A DNA stretch of 64,000 bases from Escherichia phage Murica. The first letter of the stretch is position 1; each line of letters opens with the position of its first letter. Positions 42 to 40,765 of this stretch are shown in pieces. Below the pieces are notes generated by a model that had not been told where the DNA came from, searched no databases, and saw nothing but the letters and a program-made list of their open reading frames with translations. The stretch lies in sequence record NC_041871.1; one strand, given 5' to 3'. A program made the position numbers and the translations under genes.

Positions 42-392
42 CTAACCAGTTGTTGACATTCGAATAACTTCTTCTGGTGGCAAAACTTTGGAAAATGTGC
101 ATCTTTTACCTCTCCCTTGTGTGGATGTTTCAACCACTCCTGCACATTCTAAAGTTTTAACGCACGCTGCTGCTTTTGTTTTCTTTATCCCAACATCTGC
201 TGCAATTTTCCTTGTGCTTGGTGTGAAGCGGGAATTTCCTCCAAGCTTATACCAGTTGTGCAGGTAGCAGTATACAATCTTGTCATACAAGTCAAGAACA
301 ACAACCTCCCCAGTTGTGTCATTCAAAACTTTTGACATAGATAGTATTTCAAGGGGGACTTTAAGATATAGCAGCTTATCCCCATCTTTCAT
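42..392 (-). CDS. hypothetical protein
   Basis: 116-aa ORF co-directional with the downstream kinase/phosphatase genes; no recognisable motif. Confidence 0.4.
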   Translation of the reverse strand: MKDGDKLLYLKVPLEILSMSKVLNDTTGEVVVLDLYDKIVYCYLHNWYKLGGNSRFTPSTRKIAADVGIKKTKAAACVKTLECAGVVETSTQGRGKRCTFSKVLPPEEVIRMSTTG

Positions 393-3578: not shown

Positions 3579-4292
3579 ATGCTGAATACTAAACTGATCG
3601 ACAACCTGGAAAAACTGTCTCAGCCTGAAAACTACCTTTGGTCTGCCAACTGGGTGGAAAACTGGAACCGTGTGGCAGCTAAAGTGAAAAAATCATACAC
3701 ACCATTCGAATTACAGCTTAGCTTCATTGAGGAAGAGTTCAATGAGGTTTTGGAAGAGCTGGAGAAAGGTGATGGTGGAGATCACCTGTTAAAAGAGGCC
3801 TGCGATCTTCACGTTGTCACAAGTTATGCCGCCTATCTTGTTAATGACAATCACGAAAAGTGGTCAAACCTGTTTGATAATCCACGAGGTCTTAAGTTCA
3901 AGATCGGTGAGTTCTATGATACACTGATCGCTGCGAAAAACACATCCAAGCAAAGAGCGTCAGCTTACCGCTTAGCGGAGTTGTCAACAGCTTTGCTGTT
4001 CCAGCTTCGCGGCGATGTGTGTGGGATGATGCGGAAGGTTCTCAAATCTAATGACAGTAAGTTTGCACGGATCAACCATCTACGGCATTCACACGGTGCC
4101 AGTGCAGATATGCCTGCTGAACAACTCATCGAGTTGGAGATTAAAGATCTTGAGCGTCGTTTTGGTGGTCGCTACGAAGGTTTTGTTGCTAAGGAAGAGT
4201 TCTACAACGGTAATAAAGTTATCATATTCCTTGACAGTAAAGGTAAGATCATGAAGCCTTCGAGCTTCAAGGATGTAACAGAGTATATTTGA
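3579..4292 (+). CDS. MazG-like nucleotide pyrophosphohydrolase domain protein
   Basis: N-terminal EExxE...ExxD pattern (FIEEEFNEVLEEL ... KEACD) typical of MazG/HisE all-alpha NTP pyrophosphatases; C-terminal half unassigned. Confidence 0.45.
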   Translation: MLNTKLIDNLEKLSQPENYLWSANWVENWNRVAAKVKKSYTPFELQLSFIEEEFNEVLEELEKGDGGDHLLKEACDLHVVTSYAAYLVNDNHEKWSNLFDNPRGLKFKIGEFYDTLIAAKNTSKQRASAYRLAELSTALLFQLRGDVCGMMRKVLKSNDSKFARINHLRHSHGASADMPAEQLIELEIKDLERRFGGRYEGFVAKEEFYNGNKVIIFLDSKGKIMKPSSFKDVTEYI

Positions 4293-4298
4293 CAACAT

Positions 4299-4327
4299 AG
4301 CCGGGTAATCCCGGCTTTACTTATTAT
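4299..4327 (+). terminator. intrinsic terminator
   Basis: Hairpin AGCCGGG-taat-CCCGGCT followed by TTTACTTATTAT directly after the 3579-4292 stop. Confidence 0.6.
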
Positions 4328-4354
4328 GGAAAGTATGCAGCGAGGTAGTTAGTT

Positions 4355-9323: not shown

Positions 9324-9646
9324 TGACTAAAAATTCTGTAGATAGTGCAATTATGGAAGCTGTTTTTGAGGATGATCATACAACAGGGACCATTAAAACA
9401 AAAAATACATTTATTGTTGCCACAGGTATGTGGCGGTTGTATGAAGATGACACTATTGCATACATCTTGTATACTGATGATTACGCAGATGATCGTGTAT
9501 GGTCTGCTGTGTTAAAAGAGGATTGTGAGCTGATTGAGGGCGAGCGGCTATGCATGTTTACCAGCGTGGAAACAGACGTTAAGCTTTGCTCTCTTGTGCT
9601 GTTCAAAGACAAAGCTTATTCCCCAGATGAAGAGGAAACAGTATGA
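9320..9646 (+). CDS. hypothetical protein
   Basis: 108-aa acidic ORF overlapping neighbours by 4 nt. Confidence 0.4.
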   Translation: MMTKNSVDSAIMEAVFEDDHTTGTIKTKNTFIVATGMWRLYEDDTIAYILYTDDYADDRVWSAVLKEDCELIEGERLCMFTSVETDVKLCSLVLFKDKAYSPDEEETV

Positions 9647-20119: not shown

Positions 20120-20398
20120 ATGAGCTGTGAAAAATCTTTTTTCTTTATTATTTACGGTAAAGATAACTGCCCACATTGTGTAAGAGCAAAAGAATTTGCA
20201 GTCAGTAAAGGTCTGCCTTTTGTATATAAGACACTTGGCGAGGGTTACACAAAAGAAGAGCTTATTGAGAAGTGCAGTCCAATCGTACCCAGAACGTTGC
20301 CGCAGATCTTCTTAGAAAGCAATCTTGAAAGTGTCCATATAGGCGGTGCCGACGATTTCATCTCTTTTGTTAAGAATGGTTTTGGAGAGAAAAAGTGA
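20120..20398 (+). CDS. glutaredoxin-like redoxin
   Basis: 92 aa with CPHC active-site motif, between nrdB and nrdD. Confidence 0.8.
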   Translation: MSCEKSFFFIIYGKDNCPHCVRAKEFAVSKGLPFVYKTLGEGYTKEELIEKCSPIVPRTLPQIFLESNLESVHIGGADDFISFVKNGFGEKK

Positions 20399-22518
20399 AA
20401 GTTGTAAAACGGGACGGTAGAGAAGAGGTCTATAACGGAATTAAGGTGATCAAGGCGGCAGAGTCCGCCTTACTTGAGTCTGGACATACTGAAGAAGAAG
20501 CTTACCGGATCGCTTGTGCGGTTAATGAAGTTGTTGCTAACAATCTACCAACCGACCAGTGCACAATCTCTGTAAAAAATATCCATATCCTTGTTGAAGA
20601 TGCTCTTATGGATATGGGTTTAAAATGTGCAGCCAGAGAATACATCCAGTATAGACAGACAAGAGATAATAACAGAGAGGCAGGTGGAAAACTGCTTGCA
20701 GATATTAGTGGCTTCTTGGATCGAACTTGTGATGAATTTACAAAAGAAAACGCAAATAAGCCTACCAATCATGTACACACTCATCGTGACCTGCTTGCAG
20801 GCATCCTTAGCAAACACCTTGCATCAACACAGATCCTGCCAGACCGTGTCTCAGAAGAGCACAATAAAGGCTTCATCCATGTGCATGATCTTGACTACTT
20901 GATCAGTCCGTTAACAAACTGTTGTTTGGTAAATTATCCAGATATGTTGGAAAACGGATTCAACATTGGTAACGCCCATGTCAGTAAGCCGAAGTCAATA
21001 GGGGTTGCAACAACAATCCTTAGCCAAATCTCTAGTGCGGTAGCTAGTGCTCAATATGGGGGTCAGACTATGAGCCATATTGATCATTATCTGGCACAGT
21101 ATGCTGAGGCGACTTATGAGAAGAACCTTAAATTTTGCCAGGAACATTGGTTGCCAGATGCTGAGACTGTTGCAATGCAGATGACAGATAAAGACGTATT
21201 TGACAGCATGCAGACTTTACTCTATCAAATCAATACGTTAACTTCTGTCAACGGGCAAACCCCATTCATCACATTAAGTTTAGGTCTGGACACCTCAGTC
21301 TTTGGTAGAATGATTACCAAAAACTACTTGAAAGTCCACAAAATGGGTCTTGGTGAAGAACGTATCACACCTGTGTTCCCTAAAGTGTTGTTCTTCCTAG
21401 AAGAGGGTGTCAACATGAACCCTGGAGATCCTAACTATGATTTGAAACGATTAGCTCTGGAATGCTCTGCAGAGCGGATTTATCCTGACTTTGTTTCTGT
21501 TCCACTAAATCGTAAAGTGACAGGCTCGACAGATGGCAAAGTAACGAGCATGGGTTGCCGGAGTTTTCTTAGCAAATACAGTGACTTGGAAACAGGCGAG
21601 GAGAAATATCTTGGCAGATTTAACTTAGGCGTTGTTAGCCTTAACCTACCAATGATTGCGGCAAAAGCTAAGACGGAAGGTGTTGATTTCTTTGCAGTTC
21701 TTGACGAATACTTGGATCTTGCATACGAGGCTCACCTTGTAAGGGTTAACCGTCTAAAAGGAACAAAGGCAGGGCAGAACCCCATCATGTGGTGTGAAGG
21801 AGCTCTTGCTCGCCTGGATCCTGAAGAGAGTGTTGATAAACTCTTCTATGACGGGTACGCTTCCATCAGTATTGGGTATATTGGTGTGTATGAAACCTGT
21901 CAGATTTTGGGTAGAGAGGGTGACAAGGCTTTAGCTCTTGGAATCCTTCAGCACATGAGAGATGCTTGTGAGCGATACAAGAAGGAAAGTAGACTAGCGT
22001 TTAGCTTGTACGGCACTCCTTCTGAGAGTCTATGCTATAAAGCTGCAACCTGTCTGGATCGTGAATATCCGGAAGTGTTGAAGCACGAGCATGAATATCT
22101 CACCAACAGTTTCCATCAGCCAGTATGGATAAATAGCTCTCCTTTTGATAAGTGGGAGTATGAGGAAGGTTTTGCTATGATCTCCTCTGGTGGCAACATC
22201 GGATACGTAGAGACACCTAACCTGAAAAACAACTTGGATGCTTTAGAGGCTCTTGTTGACTTCGGGTATAAACACATTATGTATTTTGGTATTAACCAAC
22301 CTGTGGATAAATGTCTCAAGTGTGGTTTCTCTGGTGAGTTCAGTGCAACAGCTAAAGGGTTCTGCTGCCCTGCGTGCGGATGCCACGATGAACAATATAT
22401 CTCAGTGATCCGAAGAGTGTCTGGATATCTTTCCAGTCCTAACTCCCGTCCTTACAATAAAGGTAAGCAAGCGGAAGTTATCGAGCGAGTTAAGCACTAC
22501 GGAAGTTGTGGTTGCTGA
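20395..22518 (+). CDS. nrdD: anaerobic ribonucleotide reductase (class III)
   Basis: 707 aa; C-terminal glycyl-radical motif RRVSGY and CxxC zinc cluster. Confidence 0.95.
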   Translation: MKVVKRDGREEVYNGIKVIKAAESALLESGHTEEEAYRIACAVNEVVANNLPTDQCTISVKNIHILVEDALMDMGLKCAAREYIQYRQTRDNNREAGGKLLADISGFLDRTCDEFTKENANKPTNHVHTHRDLLAGILSKHLASTQILPDRVSEEHNKGFIHVHDLDYLISPLTNCCLVNYPDMLENGFNIGNAHVSKPKSIGVATTILSQISSAVASAQYGGQTMSHIDHYLAQYAEATYEKNLKFCQEHWLPDAETVAMQMTDKDVFDSMQTLLYQINTLTSVNGQTPFITLSLGLDTSVFGRMITKNYLKVHKMGLGEERITPVFPKVLFFLEEGVNMNPGDPNYDLKRLALECSAERIYPDFVSVPLNRKVTGSTDGKVTSMGCRSFLSKYSDLETGEEKYLGRFNLGVVSLNLPMIAAKAKTEGVDFFAVLDEYLDLAYEAHLVRVNRLKGTKAGQNPIMWCEGALARLDPEESVDKLFYDGYASISIGYIGVYETCQILGREGDKALALGILQHMRDACERYKKESRLAFSLYGTPSESLCYKAATCLDREYPEVLKHEHEYLTNSFHQPVWINSSPFDKWEYEEGFAMISSGGNIGYVETPNLKNNLDALEALVDFGYKHIMYFGINQPVDKCLKCGFSGEFSATAKGFCCPACGCHDEQYISVIRRVSGYLSSPNSRPYNKGKQAEVIERVKHYGSCGC

Positions 22519-22522
22519 TTCT

Positions 22523-22553
22523 TGACAAAAGCCACAAGGATGTGGCATATTAT
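22523..22553 (+). promoter_or_regulatory. promoter with embedded palindromic operator
   Basis: TTGACA 22523-22528; -10 options CATATT/TATTAT at 17-19 nt; perfect dyad GCCACA-AGGA-TGTGGC (22531-22546) in the spacer. Confidence 0.5.
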
Positions 22554-22581
22554 TGACACACAGTGAGCTAGGAGGTGCAGT

Positions 22582-22698
22582 ATGTCATCAGGTATTTATA
22601 AAATTTGCAAGTGCGGCTGTAGTTGCAATCTTCGTTGGTGCAAGGCACTAGACGATTTTATTTGGCATTGCCCTAAATGTGATGCGGAGTATCTATGA
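22582..22698 (+). CDS. small cysteine-rich zinc-ribbon protein (38 aa)
   Basis: ATG 22582 after GGAGG; CKCGCSC...CPKCD; stop TGA overlaps the nrdG ATG; below ORF-track cutoff. Confidence 0.45.
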   Translation: MSSGIYKICKCGCSCNLRWCKALDDFIWHCPKCDAEYL

Positions 22699-23168
22699 AC
22701 ATTGTCGGATACGCAGAAATATCTTACACCGAAGGGCCAGGTATTAGAACTGCCTTGTGGGTATCTGGGTGCCCACACGCTTGCCCTGGTTGCTTTAATC
22801 AGGCATTTTGGTCAAAAGATAAGGGGAGGGAGTTCACTGAAGAAGACTTGCAAAAAATCTTGTCAGGTTTAGATAACCCGTCTGTGTGCGGTATCTCTCT
22901 GCTGGGTGGAGAACCCTTAGCATACTATAATGAGCCAGATATTATTAGCCTGATGGAGAAAATTAAGGAAAAATTTGGTGACAAGAAAACTATTCTTGTA
23001 TATACTGGGTTCACATTTGACCATATCTCTAGTGATGTTCTTAAACTGGCTGATATCATCATTGACGGTAAGTATGTAAAAGATTTACCAACCAAGAAAC
23101 CGTTCCGAGGCAGTGATAACCAAAGAATGTTTAAAAAAGTATCAGGCGGTTGGGTTCAGGTAGACTAG
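22695..23168 (+). CDS. nrdG: anaerobic RNR activating enzyme (radical SAM)
   Basis: CPHACPGC (CxxxCxxC) motif near the N-terminus; follows nrdD. Confidence 0.9.
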   Translation: MNIVGYAEISYTEGPGIRTALWVSGCPHACPGCFNQAFWSKDKGREFTEEDLQKILSGLDNPSVCGISLLGGEPLAYYNEPDIISLMEKIKEKFGDKKTILVYTGFTFDHISSDVLKLADIIIDGKYVKDLPTKKPFRGSDNQRMFKKVSGGWVQVD

Positions 23169-23171
23169 TTG

Positions 23172-23201
23172 TTGACAAAGCTTTGTTTAGATAGGTATAA
23201 T
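23172..23201 (+). promoter_or_regulatory. sigma70-type promoter TTGACA-18-TATAAT
   Basis: Consensus hexamers followed by GAGGAGG RBS. Confidence 0.65.
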
Positions 23202-23232
23202 TATCGTAAAATGAAAGCAGAGGAGGTGCCAA

Positions 23233-23346
23233 ATGGCTAAAAAAGCCTTGAAGAAGGCGTACAAGAAAGAGATTGCGCTTGAGCTTAAGAAAAAACACAA
23301 GCGTGAAAAGAAACATCATGAAGATGAAGAGGGGGTGCAACAGTGA
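23233..23346 (+). CDS. small lysine-rich protein (37 aa)
   Basis: ATG 23233 after GAGGAGG; MAKKALKKAYKKEIALELKKKHKREKKHHEDEEGVQQ; stop overlaps next start. Confidence 0.4.
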   Translation: MAKKALKKAYKKEIALELKKKHKREKKHHEDEEGVQQ

Positions 23347-23693
23347 CACAAGAACGTATCGATTTGGCTAATAAGTTTGTAGATCTCATTTTGCCACGGT
23401 TAGTTACTCAACATGCAGATGCTATTTCTACTAATCTTGATGGCTTACGCCTAATGCTGAATCGCACAGATGACCCTCGTATTCGGGCTGATTTAGAAGC
23501 CTCTGCCAACAAACTGGAAAAGTTCTTGCAAGTAGACACGCAAGAAGCCTTGCACAAGATTATGGTGGAAGGTTTCTCTAAAGAATTTACCATTAAAGAG
23601 CTTAAGGAGCTGATCCACCAAGAAGAGATGAATATCCGAGTTCAGGCTGTTGCAAGCAGCATGGAAGCGGCTATTGAAAAACTGTTGCAGTAA
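23343..23693 (+). CDS. hypothetical protein
   Basis: 116-aa helical ORF; GTG start per ORF track. Confidence 0.4.
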   Translation: MTQERIDLANKFVDLILPRLVTQHADAISTNLDGLRLMLNRTDDPRIRADLEASANKLEKFLQVDTQEALHKIMVEGFSKEFTIKELKELIHQEEMNIRVQAVASSMEAAIEKLLQ

Positions 23694-23731
23694 AAGTACT
23701 TGGCACATCTCAATCTGAAAGGAGTCCCAAC

Positions 23732-24520
23732 ATGGGTCGAGCTAAAGAAACAAAACGCATGCGTGATGAAGCTAGAGAGGCTCGCAAATCTGATCGCCTG
23801 CGTAAGGCTGCTGAGAAATTTGCTGACGAAAGAGAGCACACCGCTCCAGCTCTCCGACCAATGAATAAGAAGCAGCAAAAGTATCTTGATTATCTAGGGT
23901 CACGTAAGATTATTATTGTAAACGGTGTGTTTGGATCCGGTAAGACATTCATGGCATCTGCATATGCAGGTGATCTTCTGCGTAAGAACGAGATTGATAA
24001 GATTATTGTTGCACGTCCTTACGTTCAGACAGGAAAGACTTCAGGATTTAAACCTGGAAATGCAATGCAGAAACTGTGGCCCTATCTTCGAAGCATGATG
24101 GACACGATTTGTCGTCGTGTTGGCAAAGGTGCTTTTGCCGCAATGCTGGGAGACGGTCAGAACAGCCGTATCGAGATTTGTGAAGTTGAAAGCATTCGTG
24201 GTCGTAGTTTCGATGAGCGATGCTTTGTCCTGATTGACGAGGCACAGCAAACTAACCCTGAAGAAATGTTGTCAATTATCACAAGGATCTCTGATCAAGC
24301 CACCCTTGTAATTATGGGTGATAATAGCCAACGTGACATCCCTGGTAAATCTGGCCTTGCATGGGTGACGGATTTCTTTACTCGTCATCCAGATCCTGAG
24401 GTTGGAATGATCAGCTTTGATAGTCCAGACGATGTCGTTCGTTCCGGGTTGGGTCGTCAGATCGCACTCAATCTTATTGATGATCGTGCAAATCATATTT
24501 GGACCCCTGTTTCCGAGTAA
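23732..24520 (+). CDS. phoH: PhoH-like ATPase
   Basis: Walker A GVFGSGKT and Walker B-like VLIDEAQ in PhoH arrangement. Confidence 0.85.
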   Translation: MGRAKETKRMRDEAREARKSDRLRKAAEKFADEREHTAPALRPMNKKQQKYLDYLGSRKIIIVNGVFGSGKTFMASAYAGDLLRKNEIDKIIVARPYVQTGKTSGFKPGNAMQKLWPYLRSMMDTICRRVGKGAFAAMLGDGQNSRIEICEVESIRGRSFDERCFVLIDEAQQTNPEEMLSIITRISDQATLVIMGDNSQRDIPGKSGLAWVTDFFTRHPDPEVGMISFDSPDDVVRSGLGRQIALNLIDDRANHIWTPVSE

Positions 24521-24564
24521 TACAGAAGGGTGGTTATTCCACCCTTAAATATCTAAAACAGTTG

Positions 24565-24593
24565 TTGACAAATAGGTAAGCTTTAGATATTAT
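24565..24593 (+). promoter_or_regulatory. sigma70-type promoter TTGACA-17-TATTAT
   Basis: Consensus hexamers; flanks resemble the promoter at 23172. Confidence 0.65.
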
Positions 24594-24621
24594 TATCGGA
24601 CAAAACAGAGAGAAGGACAGT

Positions 24622-24933
24622 ATGGCTACAATACAAGAGAAACTGAATAAAATATACTGCCTGTTTGTCTATAACGGCGAGACAATTTTGGCAAATAAGG
24701 GATCCAAGAATGTGTGGACCAAGGACAGCGGTGGTAATATAATTAACTTAGCGTTGCTACGTGAGCGCCGACACAGATTCTTTATCGAGTCTAGAATTAT
24801 TGAAAGCAGCACTTGCTACAGAACAGGCGATAAAGTAATTGTTGACAATGATACGTGGTATGTGGTAGACTGGCAATCATTGAGTTGTGATGCTTCTGAC
24901 AATCGTAAGTATTCCATAGTGATTGCTAAATAA
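24622..24933 (+). CDS. hypothetical protein
   Basis: 103-aa ORF downstream of a consensus promoter. Confidence 0.45.
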   Translation: MATIQEKLNKIYCLFVYNGETILANKGSKNVWTKDSGGNIINLALLRERRHRFFIESRIIESSTCYRTGDKVIVDNDTWYVVDWQSLSCDASDNRKYSIVIAK

Positions 24934-24993
24934 AGGTAAATGTGAATCAGGTTTAAATAAATAGCTTTCAACTTCCAATATTAAGGATTTCTC

Positions 24994-26043
24994 ATGAATT
25001 TAACACCTCGCAGAACCATGGTACACGGCATGAAAGAAAAACAGAACGGTTTCGAACCTATGAGTAATAAAATGTTTGGTATGCCGGGCGGTATCATGGA
25101 AACATACAGCTACCCAACACCTGTTGTTGACCACGTTCTTTATATCGACGATTTGGAAGACTTACAAGATCATATGTCTCGCCTGCAGACGATCCGTATG
25201 GCTCAGCCTGAAGAAAGCATTCGAGTGATCATTAACAGCCCTGGTGGTTGCGTGCACATTGCGATGGCTTATCTGCAGGCATTCCGCGAGTCTCAGGCAA
25301 GCGTTGTTGCACATGCTGAAGGAATGTGCTGCTCTGCGGGAACAATCTTATGGCTGGGTTGCAAAGAACGCACTGTGGCTCCGGACACAGAGTTTATGTT
25401 CCACTACTATCAAGGTGGCACTTATGGTAACGGTGTGAACATGAATACTCAGGTCAGCTACTGGAAAAAACGTTTTGAACGCCTGATTGAAAAATACTAC
25501 GGTGGGGTGCTGACAGAAGATGAGATCGCATCCATCACAGCTGGTGGCGAAGTGTGGTTGGACGGAGAAGAGCTGGCAGCACGCACTGGAGCTATTATTC
25601 TGGATGAAGGCAACATACAACGCATCCAGAACGGACAAAAACCGAAAAAGCTTCTGGCAAAAGGTGATGAAGAAGGCGTGTTAGGTGAAGCAGGTCTCCC
25701 GGAGATTCACCAGTGCACATCTTTAGATGAGTTAGTTCATGCTGTTGAATCTGCAAAAGCGGGTGGTTCGAAAGGTGATGTTCACACTGTGTTCCTGAAT
25801 CTGCAGATGGAAAGTGGCGAGACCGTCAGAATTGCCCTGGGTGAGATTACTTCAGAAGATCTGCAGAGATTCTCTGTCGTTGAACTTCAGGATATTCTGT
25901 CTCAATTGAAGACTACTCTGAACGGCGGTGAAGAGGTTAAGGTGAAAGATAAGACTCGCAAGCGTCTGGTGGACAATATTATTAAAACAGCAAAAGAGCT
26001 CAATGAAAAAATCCTGGGTGCAGGAATTGTCGAAGAAGCTTAA
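24994..26043 (+). CDS. ClpP/S14-like serine peptidase homolog with long C-terminal extension
   Basis: INSPGGCVHIAMA and GMCCSAGTIL resemble ClpP oxyanion and catalytic Ser motifs; 349 aa with about 150 extra C-terminal residues. Confidence 0.5.
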   Translation: MNLTPRRTMVHGMKEKQNGFEPMSNKMFGMPGGIMETYSYPTPVVDHVLYIDDLEDLQDHMSRLQTIRMAQPEESIRVIINSPGGCVHIAMAYLQAFRESQASVVAHAEGMCCSAGTILWLGCKERTVAPDTEFMFHYYQGGTYGNGVNMNTQVSYWKKRFERLIEKYYGGVLTEDEIASITAGGEVWLDGEELAARTGAIILDEGNIQRIQNGQKPKKLLAKGDEEGVLGEAGLPEIHQCTSLDELVHAVESAKAGGSKGDVHTVFLNLQMESGETVRIALGEITSEDLQRFSVVELQDILSQLKTTLNGGEEVKVKDKTRKRLVDNIIKTAKELNEKILGAGIVEEA

Positions 26044-26054
26044 ACATTAATTCT

Positions 26055-26080
26055 AAAGCCCTCTTCGGAGGGCTTTTATG
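26055..26080 (+). terminator. intrinsic terminator
   Basis: AAAGCCCTC-ttcg-GAGGGCTTT followed by TAT. Confidence 0.7.
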
Positions 26081-26094
26081 ATCTGGAGATTTGC

Positions 26095-26628
26095 ATGACT
26101 TGTGCTAGAAAACCTGATGAACAACGTAACGCCTACGATGAGTATGTGACACCGGAGTGGTGTGCAGAAGGGCTGTATGACCTTATTCAGTTCCCAGAAG
26201 ACTGGACCTACTTAGAGCCTTGCAGGAATAGTGCCTCAGGTGTGTTCTACTCCCGTATGCCGTTAGGATCTGCATGGGGAGAAATACAAGAAGGTGTTGA
26301 CTATCTGAATACAGAATACAACCATGTTGACTGTATTATCACCAACCCACCATACAGCCTGGCTCGTGAGTTTGTAGACAAGGCGTTGAAAGATGCTGAC
26401 GTAGTTATTATGCTTTTGCGTCTTAATTTTCTGGAAAGCAAAGCCAGATTTGAATGGTGGCTTGATAATGCACCTACTACTGTGATCACAATATCTAAGC
26501 GTCCATCATTTCAATCAAACGGCAGAACTGACGGGCAAGCATATGCATATTTTGTGTGGGATAAGAAAAACCGTTTAGACTTGCCGCCGTTTATGTGGTT
26601 GGCACCCCCAGAGGTAGACCTGAAATGA
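26095..26628 (+). CDS. small DNA N6-adenine methyltransferase (Dam-like phage type)
   Basis: YVTPEW, EPCRNSASGVF and catalytic ITNPPYS (NPPY) in a 177-aa protein. Confidence 0.7.
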   Translation: MTCARKPDEQRNAYDEYVTPEWCAEGLYDLIQFPEDWTYLEPCRNSASGVFYSRMPLGSAWGEIQEGVDYLNTEYNHVDCIITNPPYSLAREFVDKALKDADVVIMLLRLNFLESKARFEWWLDNAPTTVITISKRPSFQSNGRTDGQAYAYFVWDKKNRLDLPPFMWLAPPEVDLK

Positions 26629-26909
26629 AAATGAGTGCTAAGGACAAATTACACCATCTAGCGCTAAAACGCCCTGTAACGCTCCCTGACGAACTTAACT
26701 CCATTTATGATGCGATTGTAGGGGAGATACAAAATAAAGCGTTAGCAGGCTTTCTGGGGTGCGGATTTTCGATAAATCTACCCTCGCATCTCTCAGATTA
26801 CTTCCCGCACATTGTTGGAGATTTAAGGGCAGGAGGTCTGCAGGTAGATGTTGTTGGCATCTCCCCAGAGAAAAATAATACGGTTGCCTACTTGACAGTA
26901 ACCTGGTAG
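26625..26909 (+). CDS. hypothetical protein
   Basis: ATG 26625 overlapping the methyltransferase stop. Confidence 0.35.
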   Translation: MKMSAKDKLHHLALKRPVTLPDELNSIYDAIVGEIQNKALAGFLGCGFSINLPSHLSDYFPHIVGDLRAGGLQVDVVGISPEKNNTVAYLTVTW

Positions 26910-26945
26910 TTGTGTATTGTTGTTTTCAACAAGAGGGGGTCATTT

Positions 26946-27185
26946 ATGTACAAGTCATTTTCAATCTACTCAAGACAGGCGAAACACTACACAGAGATCC
27001 TGATCACTCAGAAAAAATCTGTGGAAGGTGAGTGGGAATATCACCATAAAATGTTGCGTCCAGACTGGGTTTTTGATAGACTTATTGCTATGATCCCTCT
27101 CGGAGAAGTATACCCTCTGACAGCCCATCGCGATGCTTGGGATTTAATTGATTACATAGATTCATTTAAGGAGCCTAGATTATGA
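26946..27185 (+). CDS. hypothetical protein
   Basis: ATG 26946 after a GGGGG-containing RBS. Confidence 0.35.
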   Translation: MYKSFSIYSRQAKHYTEILITQKKSVEGEWEYHHKMLRPDWVFDRLIAMIPLGEVYPLTAHRDAWDLIDYIDSFKEPRL

Positions 27186-27580
27186 AGATTGAGATTACTA
27201 AAGAAGGTAAGAAAGTGTCCGGCAACTATGCAACAGTAATTCGGGATTTAATGTTTGAAGCCACCAAGATCGGTACATCTAAAGTTGGTCAAACTGTTAG
27301 TGTGAAAAGTAATATCTCCACAGGAGAGAAGGTATTCATTGTGGTCAAAGGGCAGGATCCCGTGGAAGGAACAGTGGGCCGAGGTGGCTACCTGTGCATT
27401 TCTGAAGAGCCGCGTATGTTAGTGGCTGACGCTACTATGGGTGGGAAACGTGTGTGCGAGGCGGATGAGGTAATGATTATCCAACCTGTTGATCCAGATG
27501 ACCCAGCAACTTGGGTGGTAGGAAATGAAATCTTCTCTTTAGAAGAGTTATCCTTCCCAGCACCGCGCTCTGTTCAGTAA
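27182..27580 (+). CDS. small acidic protein, MK-I/V-E/K paralog family (probable)
   Basis: N-terminus MKIEIT; ATGA overlap with upstream gene. Confidence 0.4.
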   Translation: MKIEITKEGKKVSGNYATVIRDLMFEATKIGTSKVGQTVSVKSNISTGEKVFIVVKGQDPVEGTVGRGGYLCISEEPRMLVADATMGGKRVCEADEVMIIQPVDPDDPATWVVGNEIFSLEELSFPAPRSVQ

Positions 27581-27617
27581 TAATTTATCTTACCAGGGAC
27601 GGTAGGTAGGAGGTAGC

Positions 27618-27851
27618 ATGAAAGTTAAATTTCTTACAGATTTAGGGTACCCTTCCTTGGTTGACTGTGTTGGTAAAATTGTGGAAGCAAAACGGCTATC
27701 TGCAAACGAGAATGTTGTCCTGGTTAAAGGGAAGGATTTACTAGCTGCAGGTGCAGAGTCTGGCAGGATCTCTCCTGATTATATGTATTACCTATCTTTA
27801 AGTAATCTGCCAGAGCGAGGCGGTAAAGGCCTTGAAGTTGTGGAGGAGTGA
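27618..27851 (+). CDS. small acidic protein, MKVK paralog family
   Basis: MKVKFL...VGKIVEA...LVKGKDLLAAGAE...LEVVEE aligns with ORFs 31177 and 31394. Confidence 0.5.
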   Translation: MKVKFLTDLGYPSLVDCVGKIVEAKRLSANENVVLVKGKDLLAAGAESGRISPDYMYYLSLSNLPERGGKGLEVVEE

Positions 27852-28381
27852 CAGGTATGCTTCTGATTAACTGGGAAGACCTCTATGGGGACAAAGACCC
27901 TGTTGCGTTTGTTGATCGTAGGTGGAGATACACTGAAGAACAACTGGCGGCAAAAAATTTAACTGCAAAACGCAGAAAGATCATCCAGTGCAAGTACAAA
28001 TACGCACAGTTTGCTGCAAAAGTGTCTCCACAAATCGAGAGCTTTGTGCTTAAATTGTATGACGAGTACCTCAAATTCAAATTGGATTTTGTGCAGGTGT
28101 ACCGTGCACAGGTACGACCAGATACCAACATATGTAGATGGAAGGTTGTTTGTGAAGGTAAAGATTTGCCGCTCAGCTTGACAATTGAGTGGCGTTATGG
28201 GTATCATGAGTGTGGTCTGTATGATATTTGGGATGTCATTGTAGATCCTGCTAAGCATCTGAACACAGAGGAGCTGGAATATATCAATAAGGTTATTCTC
28301 GATATGTTTTTCAGCTACACACATGAAAACTCTGAGAAAGAACGGGATAATTTTCTTGACACCCTCAGCGACCATTTGTAG
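27848..28381 (+). CDS. hypothetical protein
   Basis: 177-aa ORF. Confidence 0.4.
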   Translation: MTGMLLINWEDLYGDKDPVAFVDRRWRYTEEQLAAKNLTAKRRKIIQCKYKYAQFAAKVSPQIESFVLKLYDEYLKFKLDFVQVYRAQVRPDTNICRWKVVCEGKDLPLSLTIEWRYGYHECGLYDIWDVIVDPAKHLNTEELEYINKVILDMFFSYTHENSEKERDNFLDTLSDHL

Positions 28382-28411
28382 TATACAATTTAACCTACAA
28401 AGGGAGGACCA

Positions 28412-28639
28412 ATGAGTATAAATGTTGTGCTAATAGGTTACCTGGTAATGTCCGTTATAACAGCGGTATTCTTGACAGGTGTATGCATCGTGTCCAGACG
28501 AAGGGTGAAGTTTGATGATTTTATCACCATCATCACTGCTGCACCTTTTTGGCCTGTTGTTATCTTCATCGTAATAATGTGCCTAGTTGATTACTACAAG
28601 AATATCAGGAAGGAGAGTAGGGATGGAGACCGCACCTAA
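28412..28639 (+). CDS. small membrane protein with two predicted TM helices
   Basis: Hydrophobic stretches VVLIGYLVMSVITAVFLTGVCIV and IITAAPFWPVVIFIVIMCLV, basic loop and C-terminus; holin-like topology but not next to the endolysin. Confidence 0.45.
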   Translation: MSINVVLIGYLVMSVITAVFLTGVCIVSRRRVKFDDFITIITAAPFWPVVIFIVIMCLVDYYKNIRKESRDGDRT

Positions 28640-28858
28640 AACTATCTATACTGTTCTTAAAGAGATTGCGTTCTACGCAGATCTTAGCCAGGCACCTTTA
28701 TGGGAAAAGAGCATGTATTTAAAATGGTGCGTTAATTTAGGGAGACCTTCCAGTGTTTCAAGCCATGTTTATTGAGATGCTATCTGGGATATTGTTACTA
28801 GTAGCCATCTTAGGTGGTGCAGTTCTGATGTATAACTATCTTGAAAAAGGAGACAGCA

Positions 28859-29044
28859 ATGGTAAAAAATAAATCTTTAGAGCAGGCTGAAAACCTTCTC
28901 CACGAGCTGGTAAAGGAGTGGAAAGTTGAATACTCAGATTTTAATGCACGAGAGGGTGAAGATTATTGGCCTACGGAGCGCTCAGAGGGCGAATGGTATC
29001 AAGATTTTATAGAGTGGTTATATCAGACGTGCGATGAGGGGTGA
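28859..29044 (+). CDS. hypothetical protein
   Basis: ATG 28859 after GGAGA; ORF-track start 28841 is TTG. Confidence 0.35.
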   Translation: MVKNKSLEQAENLLHELVKEWKVEYSDFNAREGEDYWPTERSEGEWYQDFIEWLYQTCDEG

Positions 29045-29511
29045 CGATGTTTGTTAAATATGTAAAAACGTGCCTCAACAGTCTTGGCAGAGAGCATTGG
29101 TACACCTTGCTTGAAAAAGGGGAAATTTTAACAAAATCTGGAAAGATAACTTTGATACCTCTTGATAGTAAAGGTAAAGACCCGTCACGACTTGTTATAG
29201 ATGATTACGTTACAGGTGTGACGTTCGAGGTCTCTGTGGAGAGGTTAATACGCAGAGCTGGCGGCCCTTATGACCGAAGAGAGTATGTTTTCGATTCCGT
29301 TACAGAGATGGGGGAGCATCCGTCTTTAATGTTCAGGATGGTAATCAGAGATATGAGGTCATCTATAGATAGGATCGTAAAGGACATTAAGGAACCTTTT
29401 AGAGTAAAAGTTAAGAAGTTTTTCGATTCTAAGATTAACATACTCGCCGTTGCACTAGGTGTAGTTCAACTTCTGTTAATTTTGCACTATTTTGAACTAC
29501 TATTTAAGTAG
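29041..29511 (+). CDS. hypothetical protein with C-terminal hydrophobic helix
   Basis: 156 aa; C-terminal ILAVALGVVQLLLILHYF. Confidence 0.4.
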   Translation: MTMFVKYVKTCLNSLGREHWYTLLEKGEILTKSGKITLIPLDSKGKDPSRLVIDDYVTGVTFEVSVERLIRRAGGPYDRREYVFDSVTEMGEHPSLMFRMVIRDMRSSIDRIVKDIKEPFRVKVKKFFDSKINILAVALGVVQLLLILHYFELLFK

Positions 29512-29521
29512 TAGTTGAGAT

Positions 29522-29542
29522 ATGGCACAAAGGATGTGCCAT
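29522..29542 (+). promoter_or_regulatory. palindromic operator-like site
   Basis: Perfect dyad ATGGCACA-AAGGA-TGTGCCAT; same architecture as the dyad at 22531-22546. Confidence 0.45.
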
Positions 29543-29573
29543 AGTGAAATAAACTAAGAAAGAGGTAGAGAGA

Positions 29574-29921
29574 ATGCCAAAGATTAAAACGTTATTACTG
29601 TGGGTAGCTGTTTTAGCTTTTATAGGGTACTGGACTTGGGAAACTGAATTAAAAGATATCGGATATACCAGTCTTGAGAGCAAGGCGTGCATTGGCATAA
29701 CCGATGCGTTCAGGCAAAATGCTATGGATCACGAATGTGTTGATGCAGATATAGATGAGAAACTGTCTAAGGACAAAGATTTTTACCATGGGCATGCTTT
29801 ACTTGATAGTGGTGACACTGTAGAGTTCTGGTCGTGGTTTCGTGAAGATGGAACAATAAAAACAGCAGTAAAGATCTCTAACAAAGAGTTAATGCTGTTG
29901 CAGCAAAAGGAGGCTCAATGA
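29574..29921 (+). CDS. hypothetical protein with N-terminal signal-anchor
   Basis: 115 aa; hydrophobic segment LLLWVAVLAFIGYW. Confidence 0.4.
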   Translation: MPKIKTLLLWVAVLAFIGYWTWETELKDIGYTSLESKACIGITDAFRQNAMDHECVDADIDEKLSKDKDFYHGHALLDSGDTVEFWSWFREDGTIKTAVKISNKELMLLQQKEAQ

Positions 29922-34273: not shown

Positions 34274-34311
34274 CACACAGGTGTTGACAACGCCAACCCT
34301 GTGTGAAATAA
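34274..34311 (+). promoter_or_regulatory. promoter with -35 hexamer in a hairpin loop
   Basis: Inverted repeat CACACAGG-N16-CCTGTGTG encloses TTGACA (34283-34288); AATAAT 17 nt downstream. Confidence 0.45.
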
Positions 34312-38046: not shown

Positions 38047-38262
38047 ATGAAGATAGAAATATTTGGTGGAGCTGACAACACTCGTGGCCTGATTTACCTG
38101 GAATTCGATGAATCATACCTGCCAGAGGTGTTAAATATAGACTCTGTTGCTGAGGCTTTGGGAGTAAACCCTAAAGAACTCCACTCTTGTGCTGAGATCG
38201 ATGGTTGGGAAGAGACCATGAACATTGATTTCAGTGAAGTAGAGGATGAACCGCTGGACTGA
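38047..38262 (+). CDS. small acidic protein, MKIE paralog family (probable)
   Basis: MKIEIFGGADNTRGLIYLEF; last plus-strand gene before the non-coding gap. Confidence 0.45.
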   Translation: MKIEIFGGADNTRGLIYLEFDESYLPEVLNIDSVAEALGVNPKELHSCAEIDGWEETMNIDFSEVEDEPLD

Positions 38263-39739
38263 CACACAATTAGCTGCCCGGCTAAAGTGCTGGAGCACCT
38301 ACAATACATCTTTCAACTAAATTTCCCACCACCACAATCACTTACCTTCCACACATGACTGTTTGCTTGTTTAGTGAGCAGTCATGCCTTGACATTCTTG
38401 CCTATCCTGATAAAATTAAGTTCTTCTCTTTTCTTTTACCGAGTAATTCGGGTTTTCTGTTCTCTTCGGTTTGAAGGGGTATGGAGATACACCTGAGTGA
38501 ACATGGTGAACAACCGAACATTTGGCTATGGCATTAGCATGGCGAAGCGGACGGGTGACGAAAGAGGGGCCGGAGGACACCAGTCACTGCCATATGATAT
38601 ATGGGTGATAACCTGAAGAGTCTGAATAAGTGTTTAAGTACCAGTCAGAGGAAAAGGTGAATGGTAGCCGAAGGGGGAGGGGGGTTTCTTGTATCTTTAA
38701 TTTGTATATTATGTATACACTCGTAAACCAATCTCATCTGAATCTGTTTACCACACAAAGTAGATAGGGACAAATATCACCTATTAAACTTGAATTATTT
38801 ATAGAAAATACCACAACACCACTTAAGTCTTTGATTTTACACACAAATCCTACAGATATTCAACCTCTATATTTAACATATTCATAACATATTCCATACT
38901 CTACCTGTCTGATCAATTTACCCAACCACATCCTCCATATTTTCCCTGTCTGTACCACCCCTGCCCCGCCGGGAGTCCCGTCATATCTGGCTTTCCAGCA
39001 AATATCACACCCACAAATATCATTGCCTGAAGAGGGTTTCATCCCATAGTACATGCCTTACCTGAAGAGCGCTTCATACACCACGTAAATTTTTTAATTT
39101 ACCCCCCCTCCCCGCCGCCGGAGTGGTCGGCTTTTCCCACACAGGCCTGAAGAGTCAGCCAGAAATATCTGAACAGGTCCAGTTATACCACGATTTTGAC
39201 CTGACCGACAGGAGTGCTGCCAGGCGGACGGAATGGGAATACTTCTCATTCTTATAATAATTCTCAAATATCGAGGCAGTGAGGCAAATTAATAGGTGAG
39301 GCCGTTCACACAGTGGCACAACATTTGCAATCTATTTTGTGAGGGTGAATGAGAATACCTATCATTGTGAGAACTGTTATCATTACGGGCAATTTAACAT
39401 AATACCCATTATGCGCACCACTGGCGATCCATACAGGGATTGATAACATGAGTTACAGTTTACGCATATAACAATCATATTTCTTACTATTTGTGTGGGA
39501 TATAGTTAGCAGCCGATAGATTAGATATTGACCTGTGGACTTCCAACCGTCTAGACGTCTAAACGCCCACACAACAAGGATTATACATACATTACTGAAT
39601 GTAAACAGGGCCGCAAAAATGCTACCATACCAGATTGTAAATTTTTCATGCAGCACTTGACAAAGAGGAGAAAAACTTGTCTGACACAATATGACATACT
39701 GGGCACATTAAACACACTTTAGACTTAATTGACATGCCT

Positions 39740-39862
39740 GACTGTTTACGCTGTCACTATTCACGCTATTACTATTCACTCCCTTTACTGTTCACGCTCT
39801 TACTGTTTACATGCTTAATGGTTTACATGACCAATAGTTTACATAGCTAACTATTTACATGG
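39740..39862. repeat. array of eight tandem 15-17-bp iterons
   Basis: Head-to-tail units ending TT(T/C)AC(G/A/T) with 15-16-bp period (e.g. ctgtcactattcacg, ctattactattcact, ctcttactgtttacatg, ccaatagtttacatag). Confidence 0.75.
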
Positions 39863-39871
39863 AAATGATAA

Positions 39872-40153
39872 GCCATGCCATTCGTTTGCATGATAACTAT
39901 TAGCAAGTTAATAATCTTTCGCTGGCTATGCCAGGTGACCTTTGGTCACCCCTTCGGGTGTTTCTATGACATAATATAAAAGCAGGGCAACTATTAGAAG
40001 ATCTATAGTTGCCTTGCTTGTTATGTCATGATTAACTAAATACAAGGCAACTATGATCTGATTAATAGTTTGCAAACAAACTATCACGGGGGGTGATGGT
40101 TACTGCTTTTATATTATGTCGCGACTCCGTCGCGCCATGCCATTCGTTTGCAT
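39872..40153. repeat. 262-bp dyad-rich element bounded by exact 20-bp direct repeats
   Basis: GCCATGCCATTCGTTTGCAT at 39872-39891 and 40134-40153; internal inverted repeats GGTGACC-ttt-GGTCACC, GGCAACTAT..ATAGTTGCC, GACATAATATAAAAGCA / TGCTTTTATATTATGTC. Confidence 0.75.
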
Positions 40154-40765
40154 AGTTGCCTTATTGTTACAGATAAAATAATTGTATTGTTAATTATTTC
40201 TTATCTTTCTCTTAGTCATCTAATGATTCCAGTCAGTATAGTAATGTACAGTAAACATTAGACGACTAAAGATTTATATGCTTATAATAACTTACAGTGA
40301 CAATTTCGGACTGTTTACGAAAAATGTTGACACCTGAGCCGATTTATGTTATGCAGTTTACACGAATAATTATTTTATGCAGGTATTGACTATTCCGTTA
40401 TTCTATGGTCGGAATAAATACTTAGCAGTCTATAGAATGGTGACGCTACGTGAATTCTGGAATTTAGTGGCTATAGTTATACCCGATTTTTCACGTAGAA
40501 CACGCTTTTGTGGTTATGTAAGTGTATGACTTATAAAGATTTTTAGTTGTTGACAAGACACTGAAGATATGCATCAGGTTAAATTTTGTGCAATAGCTGC
40601 ATTACGTGCAATTTTGGAAGGAAAAACGTGTAAAAATGGCCCTGCTACCACACAATGAAAGATTATGCAATAGCTATTTTATATGTATGTTTGTACAGTG
40701 TGTGGGATTGATGGCTAGTCAATTATTCCACTTGCCAGGTGGGGACGTTTGTGGTAGGAGAAATA

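Follow-up and report, generated by a model that had tools for sequence, protein, structure and literature searches.

CsrA Sites and Other Closest Described Systems

In Gammaproteobacteria, CsrA holds a central place in post-transcriptional regulation. It is encoded by E. coli and other Enterobacterales, and its RNA sites, like those of RsmA, are the described elements closest to two short perfect dyads that we analyzed in Escherichia phage Murica, within a stretch of 64,000 nucleotides of sequence record NC_041871.1 (hereafter, the window). The consensus obtained for CsrA by in vitro selection (SELEX) is RUACARGGAUGU, in which ACA and GGA are 100% conserved and GU is nearly invariant (PMC4347634, PMC7652899). 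In the selected RNAs the GGA lies in a hairpin loop, mostly a hexaloop, with the upstream AC pairing to the downstream GU, and in the high-affinity targets of RsmE it is an ANGGAN hexaloop that is contacted (PMC4347634, PMC5694010, PMC7652899). One CsrA dimer can bridge sites at a distance of 10-63 nt, best at more than 18 nt, and a dual site is not obligatory for binding (PMC7652899). The paradigm is the glgC leader, where a high-affinity hairpin tethers CsrA and gives it access to the Shine-Dalgarno site (PMC4347634, PMC5694010, PMC7652899). Moreover, in a genome-wide screen by CRISPR (clustered regularly interspaced short palindromic repeats) interference, knock-down of csrA resulted in a broad fitness gain under several phages (PMC7553319).

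Read as RNA, the two dyads share with CsrA/RsmA sites a GGA in the loop of a short hairpin, ACA and UGU flanks, and an A-N-GGA-N loop closed by AC/GU; they are located in untranslated leaders on the sense strand, and site 1 has a second GGA 33 nt away. They differ in that they belong to the intercistronic RNA of a lytic phage, not to a chromosomal 5' untranslated region or a sponge small RNA (sRNA), and are known here from sequence; in addition, their stems have 5-9 bp, and the loop of site 2 is longer by one base, with no GGA in the Shine-Dalgarno region that follows. The CsrB/RsmB sponge sRNAs (RF00018) are similar in their GGA-loop hairpins, and the exact 16-nt hairpin of site 1 is repeated in a CsrB-like candidate from Microbulbifer, but such an sRNA is an array of about 18 sites, whereas the phage has two isolated hairpins in coding transcripts. 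The boxB of the lambda nut sites, which is bound by N, is comparable in that each genome has exactly two short, nearly identical hairpins, with purine-rich loops of 4-5 nt, in early/middle transcripts, read as RNA and with copies that differ by one loop base; however, the phage has neither boxA nor an N-like gene, and the loop sequence is unrelated. Since the same hairpin occurs in unrelated phages and in bacteria, a host factor is indicated as partner, not a phage-specific antiterminator. CsrA-type hairpins are a known kind of element; as conserved intercistronic elements of lytic phages, no description of them was found in the literature searched.

Two Hairpins Resembling CsrA Sites

Hairpin 1 (GCCACA-AGGA-UGUGGC, that is GCCACAAGGATGTGGC; an exact match at 22531-22546, plus strand) carries its GGA at 22538-22540, and can alternatively fold into a 5-bp stem, GCCAC/GUGGC, with an AAGGAU hexaloop of the ANGGAN type. 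Hairpin 2 is a perfect dyad at 29521-29543 of the plus strand (UAUGGCACA-AAGGA-UGUGCCAUA), noted earlier in the slightly shorter form ATGGCACA-AAGGA-TGTGCCAT (ATGGCACAAAGGATGTGCCAT) at 29522-29542; its genus-wide core, GGCACA-AAGGA-UGUGCC, covers 29524-29540 with the GGA at 29532-29534, while the outer UAU/AUA pairs are restricted to the clade of the window. Sequence matching recovered both dyads where the preliminary description had placed them, with 0.04 (dyad 1) and 0.00 (dyad 2) near-matches expected from dinucleotide shuffles. The predicted RNA folds reach -9.3 kcal/mol (z = -3.5) for hairpin 1 and -12.5 kcal/mol (z = -4.3) for hairpin 2, and in the predicted minimum-energy structure of both the GGA is in the loop.

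Site 1 agrees with the CsrA consensus at 10 of 12 positions, including ACA, R (here A), GGA and UGU, arranged as AC-AAGGAU-GU, and site 2 does so with one inserted A. Both hairpins are on the sense strand, in an untranslated leader and 33-35 nt 5' of a start codon. Based on this match, the dyads probably represent RNA hairpins in polycistronic phage mRNA that are bound by the host CsrA homodimer. The partner would be the CsrA of the host because the phage has no CsrA homologue, as judged by tblastn. We infer CsrA binding, and the sign of the regulation, from the consensus match together with the conservation, placement and covariation described below. The dimeric regulator proposed in the preliminary description is therefore probably involved; as the reader of a DNA operator it fares poorly, given only two sites of unequal spacing with a conserved, asymmetric and strand-specific centre. 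The regulator is likely dimeric but RNA-acting and post-transcriptional.

Conservation and Copy Number in Vequintavirus

The window belongs to an rV5-like coliphage (genus Vequintavirus, subfamily Vequintavirinae): the 12 kb around the dyads show 99% identity with Escherichia phages HeinrichReichert and slur16, and 98-99% with many further phages of this type. Among nine genomes, none of the 17 core columns of site 2 varies, as opposed to 27 of 54 flanking intergenic columns. At site 1, one of 16 core columns varies among eight aligned vequintavirus genomes, and the single variant (EPFV3, GCCACA to GTCACA) preserves a U-G pair on the plus-strand RNA. Both dyads are under strong purifying selection on stem and loop. 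The two sites are clearly above chance, their cores being kept genus-wide while the flanks vary. They form one family in which the AAGGA centre matters, as had been suggested, and differ from each other in stem pair 2, where both bases are changed (C-G to G-C), as well as in one loop base: the arms are 4 nt apart at site 1 but 5 nt apart at site 2. In more distant phages the same loci have no hairpin: in phi92-like phages nrdD and nrdG overlap, and in KpS8, Mydo and GAP31 the next gene comes directly after the homologue of gp128.

The dyads had also been called recurrent, and a genome-wide motif search had been proposed, with an outcome of only these two occurrences named as one half of what would speak against the idea. 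That is the outcome of the search, which was run on the window and on the complete relative HeinrichReichert (136.9 kb), assembled whole from three pieces and then scanned: the relative contains just two copies of CACA(A)AGGATGTG, so that recurrence within the genome is without support. Scans of both sequences for CACA-N2..8-TGTG, the half-sites, AGGATGTG and TGTG.CATA found nothing beyond the two sites.

A third copy of the arms, GCCACA-GGTA-TGTGGC at 9419-9434 of the plus strand, lies within a coding open reading frame (ORF; codons A-T-G-M-W, that is Ala-Thr-Gly-Met-Trp) and lacks GGA; in a diverged relative a synonymous GCC-to-GCT change (GCTACA) breaks its symmetry. Because it is coding and loses its symmetry by a synonymous change, this copy most likely arose by chance, and it was rejected as a member of the system. 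Also rejected were mini-ORFs starting from the ATG in the right arm, the frames of which are not conserved between sites or relatives.

The Hairpin in Other Genera of Vequintavirinae

The exact 16-mer is also present in Mydovirus contigs of about 146 kb (e.g., Raoultella phage Ro1), between the tail-tube and tail-assembly-chaperone genes, and this intergenic region was compared in PVP-SE1, 19-1-2, CB7 and EC152 (L366-L369) and in Ro1 (L063). The hairpin reads GCCACA-AGGA-TGTGGC in Mydovirus and, identically, in the uncultured contigs L028 and L034; GCCACA-TGGA-TGTGGC in Avunavirus; GCCAC-ATGGAC-GTGGC in Seunavirus (PVP-SE1, EC152); and GTCACA-GGGA-TGTGAC in Certrevirus CB7, the stem of which shows a compensatory C-G to U-A change. 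Across the genera GGA is invariant, and the preceding base is A, U or G, as in ANGGAN.

Moreover, in the tail-tube/chaperone leaders an outer helix, CGUGN...N'CACG, covaries; each leader has a second A-N-GGA motif about 24 nt 3' of the hairpin, and the Shine-Dalgarno sequence of the chaperone gene is within an AGGA-loop hairpin of its own, closed by ACGC/GCGU or, with compensation, by ACAC/GUGU. With three conserved GGA motifs and two covarying helices in four other genera of the subfamily, the leader of the chaperone gene looks, in its sequence and predicted pairing, like a multi-site CsrA-type leader. In rV5-like phages an ordinary terminator, together with promoter P051, takes the place of the hairpin at this locus.

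When 14 hairpins were brought together in a structure count, 89% of the cells were paired, a value matched by none of 500 shuffles. Four stem pairs showed changes on both sides, and the pair 4-18 was GC in seven hairpins, CG in five, UA in one and UG in one. As the search pattern had fixed the inner core of 6 of the 14 rows, only the outer pairs and the rows derived from homology are evidential.

Occurrence in Uncultured Phages and Bacteria

In IMG/VR the exact 16-mer was found in 64 stretches of many mutually unrelated viral contigs, mostly in a short gap right after a stop codon, 16-52 nt before a ribosome-binding site and ATG. To quantify this placement, matches were grouped into families by flank similarity and counted when located at most 40 nt 3' of the stop codon that ends an ORF of 60 codons or more, and outside long ORFs; an independent 14-mer, GCACAAGGATGTGC, served as second pattern, and patterns with the loop changed to GAGA as controls. 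The 16-mer occurred sense-only in 11 families and antisense-only in 2, and the 14-mer in 23 and 2, respectively; the corresponding controls gave 1 and 0 families for the 16-mer and 5 and 5 for the 14-mer. Altogether, AGGA was on the mRNA-sense strand after the stop in 34 flank families and antisense in 4, as opposed to 6 and 5 for the loop-scrambled controls, which indicates that the element is strand-specific and dependent on its loop sequence.

One uncultured family has, on several contigs, more copies of the core ACAAGGATGT, with differing outer stems (GC/GC, ATGC/GCAT). In another comparison, contigs L040 and L056 share a nearly identical upstream gene and differ in their downstream genes, which places their hairpin at a module junction. 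Searches by DNA and protein to place the uncultured families or their hosts found no match for four queries. Two further queries had distant matches: one solely to phages of Gammaproteobacteria, and the other with gammaproteobacterial phages among the best matches and Rhodobacter and Rhizobium phages as the most numerous.

A scan of bacterial genomes for the 16-nt hairpin returned at least 120 stretches. Among the 118 matches listed that were far enough from the end of their locus to be classified, 96 were within long ORFs, as expected by chance, and 22 were non-coding. One of these genomes, from Microbulbifer, contains two exact copies of the hairpin at a distance of 71 nt, within a sequence in which a unit occurs three times, with 16 GGA over 410 nt and a terminator at its end (L448 2399-2647, metagenome-assembled genome NZ_JBOFOC010000010.1, non-coding). 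The best Rfam match of this RNA is CsrB/RsmB (RF00018; 26.5 bits against a gathering score of 71, E = 2.4e-5 in a small search). Its sequence probably represents a Csr/Rsm sponge sRNA of Cellvibrionales that is not yet described. Further GGA motifs are found near several other gammaproteobacterial non-coding matches.

In three Pseudomonas species (L382, L383 and L398) the exact 16-nt hairpin is located about 3.2 kb 3' of the ribosomal S15 leader and, as estimated from the position of that leader, may come right after pnp. The L383 copy is non-coding, that of L382 is too near the end of its locus to be classified, and that of L398 is not among the non-coding matches listed.

Proposed Role of the Hairpins

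We then considered what the hairpins could do in their transcripts, with gene annotation transferred from slur16, HeinrichReichert and rV5. The nrdD gene (20395-22518, plus strand) ends 12 nt 5' of hairpin 1, which is accordingly part of the nrdD-to-nrdG intercistronic RNA. The first gene 3' of the hairpin, starting 35 nt after its end, is a 38-aa, Cys-rich and zinc-ribbon-like ORF (22582-22698, plus strand; bas58_0182 in HeinrichReichert). Its stop overlaps the start of nrdG, the gene of the anaerobic ribonucleotide reductase activase (22695-23168, plus strand), as ATGA, and translation of nrdG is probably coupled to it. The Shine-Dalgarno sequence of the 38-aa ORF, AGGAGG (22570-22575, plus strand), contains a GGA at 22571-22573, 33 nt 3' of the hairpin GGA and inside the 10-63 nt bridging range; this is a possible second CsrA contact. 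Hairpin 2 follows a gene homologous to rV5 gp128 (29041-29511, plus strand), for which the annotation gives a virion structural or membrane protein; the gene ends 9 nt before the hairpin and 12 nt before its conserved core. The start codon of a 115-aa ORF (29574-29921, plus strand) comes 33 nt after this core, and its Shine-Dalgarno region, AAGAGG, is without GGA.

The hairpins with their loop GGA would be high-affinity sites of the host CsrA. At site 1, the other RNA-binding face of the bound dimer could reach the Shine-Dalgarno GGA 33 nt downstream and hinder ribosome loading on the 38-aa ORF and the coupled nrdG, in a manner similar to glgC. At site 2 the hairpin would act alone; given that the Shine-Dalgarno region has no second GGA, its effect may be tethering or titrating CsrA, or altering RNA stability.

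Several observations weigh against this proposal. The CsrA assignment rests on a match in sequence and predicted structure. The loop region of site 2 has 7 nt instead of 6 and no GGA follows in its Shine-Dalgarno region, stems of 5-9 bp exceed those of SELEX hairpins, which are mostly of 4 bp or less, and extra loop bases can reduce the affinity of RsmE (PMC7652899). A CsrA-bearing host is established only for the phages of Enterobacterales, and suggested for two other families through distant protein relatives. The CsrB match of the Microbulbifer RNA is below the Rfam gathering score, and the invariance of the ACA/UGU core in the IMG/VR and bacterial matches is in part by construction, as exact patterns were searched. 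If the TTGACA-N18-CATATT sequence around site 1 were an active promoter, its transcripts would start 3' of hairpin 1, and only nrdD read-through mRNA would have the hairpin. Finally, U-rich tracts come after many of the IMG/VR copies, so that a role as terminator or 3' end may coexist with CsrA binding. An invariant GGA with a free preceding base, covarying stems and sense-strand placement make these hairpins stronger candidates than a bare motif match would be.

If the hairpins bind CsrA, they offer a cis-acting handle on how lytic phages read or manipulate the Csr state of the host, as well as a conserved non-coding element that could be flagged in annotation pipelines. A broader proposal, which we advance tentatively and hold to be plausible rather than probable, is that near-optimal CsrA/RsmA decoy hairpins, placed in certain intercistronic leaders, form a widespread class of cis-elements in lytic phages of Gammaproteobacteria. 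In vequintaviruses they would be located before nrdG and a block of small ORFs; in Mydovirus, Seunavirus, Avunavirus and Certrevirus they would precede the gene of the tail-assembly chaperone; and they would also be present in dozens of uncultured lineages. If true, such elements couple the translation of particular genes to the Csr state of the host, or tether or titrate CsrA during infection, and the element predates the split of the Vequintavirinae genera.

Alternative Explanations

The dyads could also be generic RNA hairpins of the upstream gene's 3' end, working as weak terminators, attenuators or exonuclease barriers with no specific partner, and alike by common descent. This would agree with the U-rich tails, and a simple scan calls site 1 terminator-like (6 pairs, 4 of them G-C, tail AUAUUAUU, with 5 T among the 8 nt that follow the stem); moreover, the hairpin of Mydovirus and Seunavirus, after the tail-tube gene, takes the position that a canonical terminator has in rV5-like phages, and the GAGA-loop control also serves as a terminator in one large phage family. 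A terminator, however, needs no given loop, whereas here the GGA is invariant across genera, the stems covary, and the orientation bias of 34 to 4 families is missing for the control loop. In addition, no U tract is present at site 2, the short stems have 6 bp and -9 kcal/mol, and further genes on the same strand come immediately downstream; both stems are weak relative to the terminators listed for rV5. We therefore regard an unspecific hairpin as unlikely.

Similarly improbable is a Shine-Dalgarno mimic, in which the AAGGA loop would pair with the 3' end of the 16S rRNA and hold terminating or standby ribosomes, either helping or hindering the next start. The AAGGA sequence is indeed complementary to the anti-Shine-Dalgarno sequence, the element lies on the sense strand between a stop codon and the next start, and other genera show the true Shine-Dalgarno sequence in a similar AGGA-loop hairpin. 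Nevertheless, the free base before GGA (A, U or G) weakens pairing to rRNA and fits ANGGAN, the conserved AC/GU closure is accounted for by the CsrA consensus and not by rRNA pairing, and the hairpin is repeated in the non-coding, CsrB-like RNA.

The preliminary description had placed the dyads at promoters, which is true of one site at most, since the -35 of site 2 is replaced in other vequintaviruses. Site 1 does lie in a candidate sigma-70-like promoter (22522-22551, plus strand), with TTGACA, an 18-nt spacer, CATATT and the extended -10 TGTGG; a promoter scan gave 10 of 12 hexamer matches plus TG, and TTGACA and CATATT are invariant in the eight aligned genomes. At site 2 the candidate -35, TTGAGA, is confined to the clade of the window, and unrelated sequence (TGTGCAACAA, TGTATAATAG and others) is found elsewhere. 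The 33 promoters listed for rV5 include neither site, and literature searches found no start-site data on vequintavirus transcripts. Phage SophiaRose has a GIY-YIG homing endonuclease gene at the precise position that follows TGTGGCA, an insertion that replaces the candidate -10 and retains TTGACA and the hairpin; survival of hairpin 1 after loss of the -10 was counted in favour of the CsrA reading.

The insertion in SophiaRose consists of the 1.16-kb GIY-YIG nuclease gene (L011 2668-3930; window counterpart 22547-22570), the Shine-Dalgarno sequence of which, AAGAGGA, has its GGA about 37 nt after the hairpin GGA. Insertions exactly 3' of hairpin 1 are also found in CM1, A141, VB-EcoM-WM, naswa, PMBT16 and O157 typing phage 14.

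A DNA operator, as first envisaged, would have a dimeric phage or host regulator on the palindromes of two promoter spacers, either repressing or, like MerR, activating a promoter with a long spacer. The dyads are perfect, with arms of 6-9 bp, and that of site 1 is central between the conserved TTGACA and either CATATT (18-nt spacer) or TATTAT (20-nt spacer); this resembles MerR-type promoters, which have a dyad in a 19-20 bp spacer, in both the roughly median position within 18-20 bp and the good hexamers. Furthermore, at both sites the right arm TGTG(G/C) and the following CATA resemble an extended -10, the distance from candidate -10 to start codon (28-30 nt) is like that of the listed rV5 promoters, and the phage has a small winged-helix protein with borderline HTH_36/DUF6945 scores (42-392, minus strand). 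This protein, of 116 aa, scores 27.4 bits for DUF6945 (cut-off 28) and 24.5 for HTH_36 (cut-off 25), and is annotated in HeinrichReichert as a putative transcriptional regulator, with no link to the dyads.

Several results speak against an operator. There are two sites per genome and half-site spacing is inconstant (4 and 5 bp); the asymmetric GGA centre is the most conserved part and always oriented with transcription, the outer arm pairs covary, and the sense-strand bias of 34 to 4 is not required by a symmetric dimer on DNA. The -35 of site 2 is not conserved, SophiaRose keeps the dyad and loses the -10, and other genera have the element after late structural genes with no evident promoter hexamers, so that, in contrast to MerR-type systems, it is also found away from promoters; a gene of the MerR family was not found in the phage. 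Dyads as a general habit of rV5 promoters were likewise rejected: for the 26 MEME-derived promoters of the 33 listed, the summed longest arm was 110 against 107.3 in shuffled sequences (149 of 500 shuffles as high), and folding energy was only mildly lower (7 of 200 shuffles as low). Overall, we consider a DNA operator very unlikely. Known sites for CRP, FNR, NrdR, the MarA/SoxS marbox and the sigma-54 -24/-12 elements failed on spacing or orientation, in comparisons intended as leads only.

Finally, a cassette of the PeSL type (promoter plus stem-loop, PMC4122927) that marks and mediates recombination of modules and is conserved via horizontal exchange is the least probable explanation, for although the insertions adjoin the exact 3' edge of hairpin 1, L040 and L056 differ downstream of a common gene, both window sites are in regions of variable small ORFs, and the cassettes of T4-like phages likewise join a stem-loop and a sigma-70-like promoter at variable-module boundaries, these have a terminator upstream of the promoter and many copies with variable stem-loops and non-specific loops, whereas here two copies share a fixed and conserved loop, hairpin 1 is within the candidate spacer, and recombination leaves unexplained the invariant GGA, the free preceding base, the compensatory stem changes across genera and the copies in a bacterial multi-GGA RNA. 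A recombination role of this kind may be compatible with CsrA binding, as a side effect.

Other Features of the Window

The dyads belong to a plus-strand block at about 2-37 kb that contains nucleotide-metabolism genes and many small genes. The 38-aa ORF next to hairpin 1, which is conserved within the genus, has the Cys pattern CxC...CxC...C...CxxC. Pfam has no family for it (22582-22698) or for the 115-aa ORF at 29574-29921, and Rfam gave no match on the window at gathering scores. The nrdD/nrdG interval is plastic, as rV5 and DrSchubert have extra small ORFs there.

Two further promoter regions combine hexamers with inverted repeats. At 34274-34305, the homologue of rV5 promoter P150 lies inside an 8-bp inverted repeat, CACACAGG...CCTGTGTG, which covers the -35 and ends next to the -10; this intergenic region is predicted to fold at -21.6 kcal/mol. 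At 4287-4330, TTGACA is followed after 4 nt by a G+C-rich hairpin, AGCCGGG-TAAT-CCCGGCT, and then by TTTACT and TATTAT; the hexamers are good and 27 nt apart, with the terminator-like hairpin between them, in a layout like that of site 1 with an unrelated hairpin.

About 20 GenBank records (MG0656xx) labelled as Campylobacter phage, with Campylobacter jejuni as host, show 98-100% identity with rV5-like phages of E. coli in this region; probably they are mislabelled, or come from mixed lysates.

At the switch of transcription direction, 38260-40755 comprises about 2.5 kb without annotated genes and corresponds to the 'non-coding' box of the rV5 paper. It is repeat-rich, with direct and inverted repeats of the GGCAACTAT type as well as two perfect repeats, one inverted and of 18 nt (39968/40103), the other direct and of 20 nt (39872/40134), and could be a replication origin or a regulatory region.

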